This document shows, piece after piece, positions 34,975 to 38,519 of a stretch of DNA of 58,403 bases (position 1 is the stretch's first letter; each line of letters begins with the position of its first letter). The notes under the pieces were generated by a model. That model saw nothing but the letters and a program-made list of their open reading frames with translations. It was not told the origin of the DNA and ran no database searches. This stretch comes from Patescibacteria group bacterium. GTDB taxonomy: Bacteria; Patescibacteriota; Microgenomatia; UBA1400; 2-01-FULL-45-11. Both the position numbers and the translations under genes were made by a program. Location: NCBI GenBank assembly GCA_042569595.1, contig JBHPHI010000003.1:1-58403 (forward strand), in the 5' to 3' direction.

Positions 34975-36097
34975 TTACGGCAGACTCTTTTTTCGCCATA
35001 CTCTTTCCTTCATCTTCTTGAATTCTTCTAATCCTAAGTTGCATACGTTTATATCTAGTGGATTTTATTTTATCGAAATTATCTCTAAGCTTAGCAATAG
35101 ATTCATCGAACTTGTTGAATTCTCCTGTGAATCTTTCCCACTCCTCAATGAACTGATGAATGTGTTTGATGATTCCTCTTAAATTGTTTTCAATCATGAA
35201 GTTTTTATATGACTCCATAACTGTGCGGGCCACTACTAAAAAGGTGAAGGGTGAGGTGAGGATGATTTTTTTAGCCATAGCTTGATCAACTATGTGGGGG
35301 AATTGTTGATTGATGTAGGAAAAAAGCATTTCGTTGGGAACAAACATGATGGCATAATCTAAGGTTCCAGCCTCAATGTCTATATATCCTCTTTTTTCAA
35401 TTTGGGTGATTTTAGTTTTTAAATCTTTTTCAAATAGTTTTTGGTGTTCTTTTTTGGCACTTTTAGTTTCGGCTTTGGCCATGTGTTGGATTTGTTGGTA
35501 TGGAAATTTTACGTCGATAGCTACTTTTCTCTCGTTGGGAAGGAGAAGGGTAATGTCTGGAATCACCTTTGTTCCTGGAAGAGATTTTTGTTTTTGATAG
35601 TGAACATCTTCTATGAGTCCGGAGTCTGTAAGAATTGTTTCAATGATTCTTTCGCCCCATTCTCCGCGAGTTTGATTGTTTGAAAGAACCCGGGACAAGG
35701 ATTCTGTGGAAGTTTTTAATTCTCTGGTAATTTCTTTGTGTTCTGCTATGGAGCGACTAATGTCTGCAAACTTCTTATTTCTGTCTCTTTCAAGTTCGCG
35801 AATTTCTTCTTGACGAATTTTTAGTTCCTTTTGTAGATCTGTAACAATTTTTTCGATGACGTCTTTTTTGTGAATATTGTCTTTATATATCGCTTCTTTG
35901 TCTGTCTCTAAAACAGATTTAGCCTGATCAATAACCCTACTGCTCACTTCTCCAAAAACTTGATTTACAATGTTTTTTGTTTTTTCTTCTTCAATATCTT
36001 GGGATGAGATTGATTGTATTTTTCTATTTACAAACCAGCCTAATAGTGAAAATCCTGCAATTAATATCGCGCTGATTAGATACAAATCTTGATTCAT
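34955..36097 (-). CDS. rmuC: DNA recombination protein RmuC
   Basis: RGEWGE, PDITLLLPNERKVAIDVKFP, DYAIMFVPNE and ILTSP. Confidence 0.92.
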   Translation of the reverse strand: MNQDLYLISAILIAGFSLLGWFVNRKIQSISSQDIEEEKTKNIVNQVFGEVSSRVIDQAKSVLETDKEAIYKDNIHKKDVIEKIVTDLQKELKIRQEEIRELERDRNKKFADISRSIAEHKEITRELKTSTESLSRVLSNNQTRGEWGERIIETILTDSGLIEDVHYQKQKSLPGTKVIPDITLLLPNERKVAIDVKFPYQQIQHMAKAETKSAKKEHQKLFEKDLKTKITQIEKRGYIDIEAGTLDYAIMFVPNEMLFSYINQQFPHIVDQAMAKKIILTSPFTFLVVARTVMESYKNFMIENNLRGIIKHIHQFIEEWERFTGEFNKFDESIAKLRDNFDKIKSTRYKRMQLRIRRIQEDEGKSMAKKESAVIAEKNE

Positions 36098-36139
36098 GAC
36101 GACATTGTAACACTTGAAACAAACAACTAGTATAGATTT

Positions 36140-36499
36140 ATGAACGTTGTTTTAAAAAGAGAAAGAAAGCAGAGATCTCAAAAGAAAAATCTTGTTCCTT
36201 CTCTTGTTTTAACGGTGATTTTTTGGATATTGCTGTTTTTATTAATTTTCTTTGTTGACCCATTGCTGGTGAGAGATTTCATTTTAAAAGATAGTTACGC
36301 TTTGTTTTTTATTCTTTTTTTTGTTTCAACTTTTTTATCTTTTTCTTTCCTATTAAAATCTTCAAGAAGGGGTTTATTTTTTTCTTTTGGAATTTCATTT
36401 TTTTTAGTACTTCGCTTAATTGGGATTGGTTCTATTTTTAATATTGCTCTTTTGACTCTGTTTTTGATAACTCTTGATGTATATATATCTCGATCTTAG
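36140..36499 (+). CDS. Small multi-TM hypothetical protein
   Basis: Basic N-terminus and about 4 hydrophobic segments; fills an intergenic gap. Confidence 0.75.
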   Translation: MNVVLKRERKQRSQKKNLVPSLVLTVIFWILLFLLIFFVDPLLVRDFILKDSYALFFILFFVSTFLSFSFLLKSSRRGLFFSFGISFFLVLRLIGIGSIFNIALLTLFLITLDVYISRS

Positions 36500-36568
36500 T
36501 TTGACTTGCGTATAAATATCTAATATTCTACTTTTATTAATTAAACTTATCTGATTTATCAATCTTTT

Positions 36569-36937
36569 ATGCAGGTTTCTAAAAAGAAATTAAACCAAAA
36601 TATTCAAAAACAAATTGAGGGAATATTTTTCAAGTTAATATCCGACATCCGAACGGAGTCCGAGGCTAAAGTAGTTTTTTGGGACTTACTATCTAAAACA
36701 GAACAGCAGGCAATTGTGAAAAGAATCGCTATTGCAATATTTCTGGATAAAGGTAGGAGTTATGAAAATATAAAAAGCTATTTAAAGGTTTCGTCTGCAA
36801 CCATTGCTTCTGTAAACGAAAAAATGGGAGACCCGGGAATACAGTTGGCTTTGCAAAAAATTAAGGCAGAAGAATGGGCTGAAGATTGGGTGGAAAAAAT
36901 TGGTCAGTTTGTTGAAAATATTTTCTCAAGTAAATAA
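36569..36937 (+). CDS. TrpR-like YerC/YecD HTH protein
   Basis: DLLSKTEQQAIVKRIAIAIFLDKGRSYENIKSYLKVSSATIA. Confidence 0.85.
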   Translation: MQVSKKKLNQNIQKQIEGIFFKLISDIRTESEAKVVFWDLLSKTEQQAIVKRIAIAIFLDKGRSYENIKSYLKVSSATIASVNEKMGDPGIQLALQKIKAEEWAEDWVEKIGQFVENIFSSK

Positions 36938-36946
36938 ATTTTACTG

Positions 36947-37053
36947 TGCTACAATAACGCCATGAGAGCAAAACCTTCACCTTTGATGTGTAAAGTAAGA
37001 ATTTGAACGTGAAGGGGTTTTATTTAGAACTCCTTTCGCAGAGGAGTTTTTTT
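36947..37053 (+). promoter_or_regulatory. Extended -10 promoter, 14-codon uORF and alternative hairpins: attenuator-like metG leader
   Basis: TGcTACAAT at 36947-36955. uORF 36962-37006 encodes MRAKPSPLMCKVRI. Pairings 36970-80/37009-21, 37011-20/37027-36 and 37028-34/37042-48. Confidence 0.65.
37028..37053 (+). terminator. Intrinsic terminator-like hairpin upstream of metG
   Basis: AACTCCT-TTCGCAG-AGGAGTT running into a T tract. Confidence 0.75.
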
Positions 37054-37076
37054 ATTGGTAAAATTTAAGGACGTAA

Positions 37077-38519
37077 ATGAAAAAAAATAATTACTACATA
37101 ACTACTACCCTCCCTTATGTAAATGCAGAGCCACATATAGGGTTTGGGTTGGAGATTGTAGCAGCTGATGTAATTGCTCGATATCAAAAACTACTTGGTA
37201 AAAATGTTGTTTTTAACACAGGAACAGATGAGCATGGATTGAAAATATACCAAAAAGCTTTAGAGGAAAATAAGGATCCAAAAGACTATGTTGATGAGTA
37301 TGCGGTTAAATTTGATGAATTGAAAAACTTATTAAATTTGAGCTATACAAACTTTATTAGAACTACTGATGAACACCACATAAAAGCGGCTCAAGAGTTT
37401 TGGAATAGATGCAAAAAAAACGGCGACATTGATAAAAAACTATATAAGGTTAAATACTGCGTTGGTTGCGAGCTTGAAAAAACTGATTCGGAGTTGGTGG
37501 ATGGAAAATGTCATCTTCACCCAAACAGAAATCTTGAAATTCATGAAGAGGAAAATTATTTTTTTAAGTTTTCAAAATATCAAGATAAGTTGATGGAGCT
37601 TTATCAGCAGGGTGATTTTGTAAAACCTAGCAAAAAACAAAGAGAAATAAGTTCTTTTGTCGGTGGAGGTCTGCAAGACTTTAGTATTTCAAGACGTAAG
37701 GAGAAAATGCCTTGGGGGGTTCCTGTTCCTGGTGATGATGAGCATGTAATGTATGTTTGGTTTGATGCTTTGGTAAATTATATTTCAACCTTGGGTTGGC
37801 CTAATGATGAAGAAAATTTTGACAGTTTTTGGCCAGTAGTTCAAATTGCAGGAAAAGATAACCTTAGACAGCAGTCTGCTATGTGGCAAGCCATGCTTTT
37901 GTCAGCTGGATTACCAACATCAAAACAAATACTTATTAACGGATTTATCAGTGTTGATGATCAAAAGATGAGTAAGAGTTTAGGAAATGTAATAAGCCCT
38001 AAGCAATTGGTTAAGAAATATGGGGTGGATGGAGCCAGATTTCTATTAATTGATCTTGGGCCCGTATCAGATGATATGGATGTTTCATGGAGTAAATTTG
38101 ATGAGAGATATAATGCTTTTCTTGCAAATGGTTTGGGAAACTTGGTTAGCAGAGTTGCAAGATTGGCTGAGAAGAACAACCTTGATGTCTCGAGGCTAAA
38201 ACTTAATAGGCAAAATGTGATTTTAGAGGAAATGAGGTTATATGTGGAAAATTATGAATTTAATAAAGCTTTAGATTATGTATTTGGAGTAATTAGTGGA
38301 ATAGATAAATATATTGAAAAGAATGCTCCTTGGAAAAAATCACCTGAAGAGGCCAATAAAATACTTGAAAATATTGTGATTGGCTCTGAATCTACTACTT
38401 CTTTGATTGAAATTGCCAAGGCAATTGAGCCTATTATTCCTGAGTCTTCAAGAAAAATTGTTGATCTTTTTTCTGGCTCTAAAATTACAAAGGGTGAAAG
38501 TTTATTTCCAAGGATATGA
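37077..38519 (+). CDS. metG: Methionine--tRNA ligase (short form)
   Basis: YITTTLPYVNAEPHIG, NTGTDEHGLKI, YVWFDAL and KMSKS. Confidence 0.97.
   Translation: MKKNNYYITTTLPYVNAEPHIGFGLEIVAADVIARYQKLLGKNVVFNTGTDEHGLKIYQKALEENKDPKDYVDEYAVKFDELKNLLNLSYTNFIRTTDEHHIKAAQEFWNRCKKNGDIDKKLYKVKYCVGCELEKTDSELVDGKCHLHPNRNLEIHEEENYFFKFSKYQDKLMELYQQGDFVKPSKKQREISSFVGGGLQDFSISRRKEKMPWGVPVPGDDEHVMYVWFDALVNYISTLGWPNDEENFDSFWPVVQIAGKDNLRQQSAMWQAMLLSAGLPTSKQILINGFISVDDQKMSKSLGNVISPKQLVKKYGVDGARFLLIDLGPVSDDMDVSWSKFDERYNAFLANGLGNLVSRVARLAEKNNLDVSRLKLNRQNVILEEMRLYVENYEFNKALDYVFGVISGIDKYIEKNAPWKKSPEEANKILENIVIGSESTTSLIEIAKAIEPIIPESSRKIVDLFSGSKITKGESLFPRI

Follow-up and report, generated by a model that had tools for sequence, protein, structure and literature searches.

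The 139-nt spacer in front of metG, the gene for methionyl-tRNA synthetase (MetRS), in a 58,403-nt stretch of DNA from a Patescibacteria genome (hereafter the window, meaning this whole stretch) probably holds a ribosome-mediated transcription attenuator. It would be borne on a leaderless mini-gene driven by a promoter, P1, and would add metG transcripts when charging of tRNA-Met falls, on top of those supplied by a second promoter, P2; we place the probability of this reading at about 60%. A first-pass annotation of the same spacer had proposed trp-type attenuation sensed through a single methionine codon. Of that proposal, the mechanism class is well supported by the analysis described here and sensing of methionine by the single codon is putative; the set of leaders to which the metG leader of the window belongs is convincing apart from this copy, its weakest. 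The host genome, from an uncultured member of the Candidate Phyla Radiation (CPR), is 0.91 Mb in size (a 912-kb assembly) with 38% G+C.

Read from 5' to 3', the spacer consists of P1, 6 nt, an upstream open reading frame (uORF), a segment 2, a terminator hairpin followed by seven U residues, P2, 12 nt that include AAGGA, and the metG ATG. The extended -10 of P1 had been recognized at first pass and is plain in the sequence 6 nt before the uORF ATG, and the transcription start on the uORF is predicted from it. Because this -10 lies only 6 nt from the ATG, the uORF transcript would be leaderless; spacing from -10 to ATG is likewise 6-10 nt at the other leaders considered below. A short open reading frame (ORF) complete with start and stop, and predicted to be translated, therefore stands at the 5' end of the transcript, and its codons 2-12 read R-A-K-P-S-P-L-M-C-K-V. 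The segments that follow can be partnered in alternative ways. Pairing of segments 1 and 2, originally drawn between 36970-36980 and 37009-37021, does exist and can be refined to 36974-36980 with 37009-37015, accompanied by an inner 5-bp helix (36982-36986 with 37003-37007). The ten contiguous pairs noted between segments 2 and 3, three of them G-U (37011-37020 with 37027-37036), are likewise present, and are extended by RNAfold to an antiterminator of 13 bp with one bulge (37009-37021 with 37026-37039). Segments 3 and 4 form the hairpin expected ahead of the U tract, in which 37026-37036 pairs with 37040-37050 around a 3-nt loop before U7, and this predicted intrinsic terminator, lying between the leader ORF and the structural gene, appears in both the minimum-energy and the centroid folds. 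Folding energies, an obvious check on such a scheme, come to -11.3 kcal/mol for helix 1:2 folded alone, -13.9 for helix 2:3 and -10.9 for helix 3:4. The antiterminator thus competes for the terminator's 5' arm and has the lower energy of the two; since segments are shared, helix 2:3 excludes both helix 1:2 and the terminator.

The position of a ribosome can be mimicked by masking, in which the RNA beneath it, to 12 nt past the codon being read, is made unpairable; the footprint size is an assumption. Unmasked, the leader RNA folds into helix 1:2 and the terminator. With nucleotides 1-39 masked, which corresponds to an A site at Met9 plus 12 nt, the antiterminator becomes the minimum-energy fold, as it does for any cover of 39-42 nt, and with nucleotides 1-57 masked, corresponding to a ribosome at the stop codon, segment 2 is blocked and the terminator forms. 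In essence, the structure that forms in these folds depends on whether the ribosome stands at Met9 or at the stop codon, which bears out the trp-type logic originally ascribed to the leader. As a control, positions 36962-37023 were dinucleotide-shuffled (n=1000) with the terminator held fixed, and a full switch was defined as the terminator in the free fold, the antiterminator at 39 nt masked and the terminator again at 57 nt masked. The antiterminator arose in 23 of the 1000 shuffles (2.3%) and the full switch in nine (0.9%); the structural observation is therefore confirmed, and chance is an unlikely source of it.

The same design recurs elsewhere in the genome. A strict pattern (a -10 box, 5-9 nt, ATG, 8-30 codons, a stop and a terminator) was scanned across the whole 912-kb assembly and matched eight times, including the metG, leuS and K-rich leaders, and relaxed searches added leaders at pheS and hisS, the latter with a uORF also given as MKNTYKTTKHHHTHTF... 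(Table 1). At pheS, leuS and hisS the codon run matches the amino acid of the synthetase gene itself. These three and the K-rich leader each hold four to five regulatory codons, place an antiterminator arm at or just past the end of the uORF, and switch in masked folds in the same way. Nor is the pheS case confined to this genome: within the order, at least four further genera have Phe-run uORFs 5' of pheS (L311, L319, L327 and L331). The relaxed scan for a uORF followed by a terminator gave mostly noise, and only matches with codon runs fitting a downstream aminoacyl-tRNA synthetase (aaRS) gene were kept. A profile built from all the leaders of the genome found no further members in it. The setting is one in which a -10 box stands 5-9 nt before 17.6% of first ATGs (550 long ORFs) compared with 1.2% of internal ATGs, and Shine-Dalgarno-like motifs before 20.7% compared with 9.2%; leaderless initiation is, as judged from such signals, a major mode in this genome.

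Leaders of the same build also precede metG in other lineages. Approximately 290 metG upstream regions were examined, drawn from 30 order-level genomes, 80 metagenome loci, 80 species-representative loci and about 100 more order-level genomes, and three further independent leaders emerged, all Met-rich, with three to four Met codons each (L034/L035, L091, and L196 from genome G041). Together with that of the window, their uORFs span 14-17 codons, and the leaders measure 97-109 nt, compared with 94 in the window. In L034, L091 and L196 a G-rich arm just past the stop pairs with the terminator's 5' arm, the terminator has a U6-7 tract, and masked folds switch as they do for the window leader, although most of the Met-rich leaders have three segments and no clear 1:2 helix. 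Twenty-five distinct leaderless-type uORFs were found 5' of metG among the regions examined, and three of these contain at least three Met within seven codons, for which, with Met at about 2% of residues, we estimate a chance expectation below 0.1. Among rare amino acids, Met alone is enriched to this degree in the 25 uORFs. The Met-rich leaders share no sequence with one another or with the window leader.

Table 1 Features of the metG leader of the window, its gene context and comparable leaders. Unprefixed coordinates are window positions; C and L prefixes are our handles for contigs and loci.
Feature	Coordinates	Strand	Basis or remark
P1, extended -10 TGCTACAAT	36947-36955	+	read from sequence; 6 nt 5' of uORF ATG
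metG leader uORF, 14 codons + TGA, MRAKPSPLMCKVRI	36962-37006	+	ATG 36962, TGA 37004-37006; without Shine-Dalgarno
Met9 codon, sole internal Met, proposed sensing codon	36986-36988	+	sequence
Cys10 codon, next after Met9	36989-36991	+	sequence
Segment 1, CCUUCAC	36974-36980	+	pairs with 37009-37015 (GUGAAGG) as anti-antiterminator helix 1:2; RNAfold minimum-energy and centroid folds
Segment 2, GUGAAGGGGUUUU	37009-37021	+	starts 3 nt past stop; partner is segment 1 or segment 3
Segment 3, terminator 5' arm	37026-37039	+	partner is segment 2 (antiterminator) or segment 4
Segment 4, terminator 3' arm (37040-37050) and seven U (37047-37053)	37040-37053	+	terminator scan, fold
P2, second extended -10 TGGTAAAAT	37056-37064	+	promoter scan; 3' of terminator, 12 nt 5' of metG ATG
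Shine-Dalgarno-like AAGGA	37067-37071	+	5 nt 5' of metG ATG; sequence
TrpR/YerC-like small DNA-binding protein gene, 122 aa	36569-36937	+	Pfam PF01371 Trp_repressor, E=4e-11
metG, methionyl-tRNA synthetase, 480 aa	37077-38519	+	Pfam PF09334 tRNA-synt_1g, E=9e-98
pheS leader uORF MTNTKTFFFFKL, FFFF	C5:34678-34716 (L301 179-217)	+	terminator C5:34740-34765
leuS leader uORF MKRKSNSLKLLLSLY, LKLLLSL	C20:9030-8983 (L302 184-231)	-	terminator C20:8959-8936
hisS leader uORF MKNTYKTTKHHHTHTFRRVSFVMH, HHHTH	C1:50682-50756
K-rich leader uORF MNNTFVAKKKKNHS, KKKK	C34:201-157 (L303 157-201)	-	antiterminator and terminator
metG leader of L034/L035, uORF MINISLISDMMMTNS			TATAAT, 6 nt, ATG
metG leader of L091, uORF MNIRVSIMMEMKLS			TGGTAAAAT, 7 nt, ATG
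metG leader of L196 (G041), uORF MNQTPQTTMEMSMMYHN			TGTTAAAAT, 7 nt, ATG
Loci with TrpR/YerC-like gene 5' of metG	window 36569-36937, L004, L011-L014, L016, L017, L020, L022-L031, L033, L034, L091

From the sequence elements, energetics, geometry and recurrence of the design, all of which were read or computed directly, a course of events can be proposed in which start sites, uORF translation, termination and the methionine response are the predicted steps. Transcription from P1 would begin at, or one to two bases from, the uORF AUG, and 70S ribosomes would translate the uORF without a Shine-Dalgarno sequence. A ribosome reaching the UGA would cover segment 2, allowing the 3:4 terminator to form and a transcript of about 95 nt to end in U7. 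A ribosome held within codons 2-12 would instead cover segment 1 and leave segment 2 free; the likely cause of such a stall would be scarcity of charged elongator tRNA-Met, Met9 being the sole cognate codon among these. The more stable 2:3 pairing would then prevent the terminator, RNA polymerase would read into metG, and MetRS would be translated from the read-through transcript by way of AAGGA. Were no ribosome to load, helices 1:2 and 3:4 would form and transcription would terminate. The inducible read-through would supplement a basal, near-leaderless metG mRNA from P2, and the same terminator would also end transcripts of the TrpR-like gene upstream. It is also a possibility that the GGAG-like arm past the stop codon holds the terminating ribosome through the anti-Shine-Dalgarno sequence. 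We infer that metG is the gene under control of the leader, and AAGGA is probably usable only by a transcript that starts upstream, that is, by read-through from P1; this motif is absent before metG in L031 and L033, relatives without the attenuator.

The closest relatives show which parts of the spacer are kept. In a search of 5.8 billion proteins the best match to the MetRS of the window has 67% identity, and the closest loci share the synteny of rmuC, a small ORF, the TrpR-like gene and metG. In three of these (L031, L032 and L033) the spacer is 52-77 nt long and holds a terminator hairpin, TTTTTTTATTG and an extended -10 placed 7-8 nt before the metG ATG; the hairpin and GGAGTTTTTTTATTG are kept in all three, the stem differing in sequence and remaining complementary. 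A 22-nt stretch, GGAGTTTTTTTATTGGTAAAAT (37043-37064), is identical in L031 and L033, where MetRS is 67% and 64% identical and the box lies 8 nt before the ATG. Since the spacers of these relatives contain just those two elements, the conserved core is the terminator with P2, and from their layout the terminator would serve the TrpR-like gene, with metG having its own promoter 3' of it. More broadly, most of the approximately 290 relatives have TG-n-TAnAAT 6-9 nt before the metG ATG, so that metG mRNA would be leaderless in most of them. What the window adds is some 85 extra bases (P1, the uORF and segments 1 and 2) and a slightly longer approach to the metG ATG that contains the Shine-Dalgarno-like motif.

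Several of the results weigh against a methionine-sensing attenuator in the window. Conservation of the uORF and of Met9, which the first-pass annotation had named as a check, fails: the uORF and helix 1:2 are absent in the three closest syntenic relatives, L031-L033, and G001, a relative of the same family, has no leader before metG at all. P2, which the earlier reading had overlooked, sits past the terminator and is conserved in relatives, so metG can be expressed without read-through and the attenuator cannot be its sole control. Leader peptides of this type carry several, usually tandem, regulatory codons, and the metG uORF has one internal Met compared with three to five regulatory codons in every clear case; because of this disparity its Met specificity is drawn from context, and the original caution that a single Met codon makes a weak sensor was apt, this leader being the outlier. 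At least one internal Met among 13 codons is expected by chance about once in four (our estimate), which is not significant alone, and Met9 lies 23 nt from segment 2, compared with 12-18 nt from the last regulatory codon in the other leaders. When the pheS, leuS and K-rich leaders are combined in a leave-one-out nhmmer profile, the metG leader is missed whether the hisS leader is added or not; it resembles the others in design and not in sequence. Finally, the Met uORF is absent from L307-L309, relatives of L034 in which MetRS is 74-77% identical. Its absence at that level of identity makes the leaders evolutionarily labile, and the design appears, from such comparisons, to have been gained and lost repeatedly.

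Of the alternatives that these results invite, the one that survives best, though it seems rather unlikely, keeps the switch and gives up methionine. The leader would be a working translation-coupled attenuator that is not Met-specific, or the decaying descendant of a Met-rich leader, and segment 2 would be freed whenever the lead ribosome slowed anywhere in codons 2-12. The leader would then report general translational stress or lost coupling, and its single Met would have no significance or would be all that is left of an earlier run. The contrast between this one codon and the three or four in L034, L091 and L196 suits such an account, as do the wide stalling zone afforded by helix 1:2 (any cover of 39-42 nt gives the antiterminator), the rapid gain and loss of leaders among relatives and the capacity of P2 to supply metG independently. 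Decay, however, sits poorly with a promoter, start codon, four segments and U tract that are all intact, and with pairing that is strong. The element is also located exactly where other lineages have Met-rich leaders, and every other leader in the genome with a known regulated gene matches the amino acid of that gene, which argues against a non-specific role.

We consider it less likely again that there is no attenuation. The hairpin would then do no more than end transcripts of the TrpR-like gene, metG would depend wholly on P2, and the P1-like box, the uORF and the pairings would be products of chance in an AT-rich spacer. L031, L032 and L033 present just such a layout (stop codon, terminator, TTTTTTTATTG, -10 box, ATG), and in most relatives metG has no leader and its ATG follows a -10 box by 6-9 nt. 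The folding z-score of the whole region is only -1.4, which is unremarkable, and Rfam leader models stay below threshold. Chance would nevertheless have to supply a switch that 0.9% of shuffles reproduce, at a site matching a strict pattern found just eight times in 912 kb and followed by an aaRS gene, as about 2% of random sites would be (our estimate). It would have to explain, moreover, why the 85 or so extra nucleotides carry a well-matched extended -10 at leaderless spacing, and why metG is preceded by an AAGGA that makes sense only for a longer transcript. An independent small gene unrelated to metG, whether a 95-nt small RNA from P1 to the terminator or a 14-residue peptide, is very improbable: P1 and the terminator do bound a compact unit, and attenuator RNAs and leader peptides are reported to act in trans in other bacteria, for example rnTrpL and peTrpL of Sinorhizobium (PMC7298713, PMC7968998), yet neither peptide nor RNA sequence is conserved in the searches made, and both the alternative pairing over the terminator and the aaRS leaders with matching codon runs would be left unexplained. 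We also considered, and dropped, the idea that the uORF (MRAK...) is left over from the start of an ancestral metG (compare MRKKFY... in relatives), given that the N-terminus of metG is complete and the two starts have no nucleotide similarity.

Known families of leader RNA do not account for the spacer. An Rfam scan of 36000-38000 at E<=10 returned sub-threshold noise only, with the leader-peptide families (RF01859 and the Trp_, His_, Leu_ and Thr_leader models) all below threshold; the best leader match was Phe_leader (RF01859), at 17.9 bits against a threshold of 55 (E=8.9), over 36956-37056. The clear Phe, Leu and His leaders of the genome are also sub-threshold in Rfam, at 20-26 bits. The T-box model RF00230 had no match in the same interval and at the same cutoff, and S-adenosylmethionine (SAM) riboswitch models (RF00162 and its clan) had none in the metG leader. 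Both classes are represented elsewhere in the genome: its sole strong T-box lies at C5:41020-41309 (L306 121-410; 92.7 bits against a threshold of 93), and a SAM-I riboswitch lies 5' of metK (C9:26905; L304 213-315; 44.2 bits against a threshold of 44.4). The T-box contig ends about 320 nt beyond the T-box, and the metK riboswitch has two successive terminator-like hairpins. With a T-box and a SAM-I riboswitch present besides the leaders, control at the RNA level is well used in this genome; the organism appears to sense SAM by riboswitch at metK and, we infer, Met-tRNA by leader peptide at metG.

Ribosome-mediated attenuation is a textbook mechanism, known mainly from biosynthetic operons of Proteobacteria and Actinobacteria and from a few synthetase genes (pheST, trpS, leuS and hisS paralogues). 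In the enterobacterial trpL leader, four segments form 1:2, 2:3 and 3:4 pairings: 2:3 is favoured when the ribosome stalls in segment 1, segment 2 is masked when it reaches the stop, and untranslated RNA adopts 1:2 and 3:4. The metG leader shares this four-segment logic; trpL differs in having two tandem Trp codons and in governing biosynthetic genes, where the metG leader has one Met codon and precedes a synthetase gene. At E. coli pheST, a ribosome-read short ORF (pheM) sets a terminator against an antiterminator before the synthetase gene, and expression rises when cognate charging falls. The likeness to the metG leader lies in a leader ORF with competing terminator and antiterminator 5' of an aaRS gene. 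The pheM leader has a Phe codon run, a Shine-Dalgarno sequence and a 5' untranslated region, whereas that of metG has a leaderless uORF with one Met codon, a second promoter past the terminator and a CPR host.

The mechanism proposed for metG is thus of the trp/pheST type and already known, and its closest counterparts in function are E. coli pheST and the attenuators of Streptomyces trpS and leuS and of Bacilli hisS paralogues. The first of these is cited as a gamma-proteobacterial example in PMC1262725, and the others were predicted by comparative genomics from runs of codons for their own amino acids (Streptomyces, PMC1262725; Bacilli, PMC2965389). Like the metG leader, the Streptomyces and Bacilli examples belong to aaRS genes of non-proteobacterial species; no example concerns metG or methionine or comes from Patescibacteria, and leaderless leader ORFs are not described there. 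Mycobacterial leaderless short ORFs encoding polycysteine are reported to be Cys-responsive attenuators that tune downstream genes (bioRxiv 10.1101/834739). They resemble the metG leader in opening a leaderless mRNA with a tiny ORF and differ in phylum and amino acid, and in the metG leader an intrinsic terminator and an antiterminator are explicit. T-box and SAM-I elements, likewise, act in cis from a leader RNA with a terminator at its end, and control aaRS or Met/SAM genes; the metG leader, which at 95 nt is too short for a T-box, has a translatable ORF in place of a ligand- or tRNA-binding fold. The first-pass annotation knew of no ribosome-mediated Met attenuator for metG in CPR bacteria, and our literature searches agree, having found no Met-specific leader peptide and no leader-peptide attenuation in CPR.

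The gene order around the leader is rmuC (on the minus strand), a 119-aa ORF, the TrpR/YerC-like gene, the 139-nt spacer, metG, a NUDIX gene and tatD. The TrpR/YerC-like gene has no terminator of its own before the metG leader. A gene of this kind (PF01371) lies directly 5' of metG in a large share of the order's genomes, and in some its stop codon overlaps the metG start codon; the gene 5' of the metG leader in G041 is not TrpR-like. From this arrangement, the TrpR/YerC-like protein may be a regulator of metG (at P2) or otherwise be tied to it functionally. Genomes of the order encode two divergent types of MetRS, about 55-67% or about 40% identical to the window enzyme, even within single families, which suggests metG replacement or lateral transfer among lineages.

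The other leaders have features of their own. Phe-run uORFs precede pheS in G001, G004, G025 and G037. In the window genome, TGATAGAAT follows the pheS terminator, 6 nt before a second pheS ATG, giving an attenuator and then a leaderless promoter, as at metG. The leader of leuS (846 aa) includes the segments GGGGAGTT, AACTCCCC and GGGAGTT-U7, and its 3' half and the pheS leader are nearly identical in sequence, a likeness suggesting that a leader cassette was duplicated in this genome. Downstream of the K-rich leader, the sequence (C34, L303 49-130, minus strand) reaches the contig end, which cuts off the regulated gene, and resembles the 5' part of a tRNA gene. A further candidate leader at C2:23902-23769 (minus strand, inside L298) comprises TGATATTAT, 9 nt, ATG, MKLSSKTHQLINRFALIKS, an antiterminator formed by GGAGGT/ACCTCC, and a terminator that ends in TTTTTTATTG. 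No codon run is obvious in this candidate, which weakly resembles the pheS/leuS leader profile (E=0.006). ARAGORN found no tRNA after this candidate or after the K-rich leader, where the sequence is cut at the contig end. A 52-nt element follows the terminators of both hisS (C1:50809-50860; L300 310-361) and the K-rich leader (L303 49-100, minus strand), and consists of GACC, a 9-bp hairpin and then GGTACGCAAGAT. Its flanks are conserved, the stems of the two copies differ at two pairs, C-G to U-A (compensatory) and G-C to G-U, and the element matches no Rfam family.

Taken together, these leaders raise a broader prospect, to which we give roughly even odds: that Patescibacteria, which make few amino acids and initiate much of their translation without leaders, rely chiefly on leader-peptide attenuators, leaderless and fast-evolving, to sense tRNA charging at their aaRS genes (for Met, Leu, Phe, His and perhaps Lys). 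Each would stand in series with a constitutive leaderless promoter and add inducible expression to a basal level. The set would include the first methionine-specific ribosome-mediated attenuator, and metG of the window would be a minimal, one-codon version. If so, even ultra-small, host-dependent bacteria poor in biosynthesis would keep track of how well individual tRNAs are charged and set their supply of synthetases accordingly, by means of leaderless mini-genes in which no Shine-Dalgarno sequence is required. Such switches would come and go rapidly, four of the approximately 290 metG loci carrying one without mutual sequence homology, and would offer a tractable case of repeated de novo evolution of regulatory RNA. 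Leader units of 90-120 nt would, moreover, account for many of the spacers without annotation and of the "orphan" terminators seen in CPR genomes.

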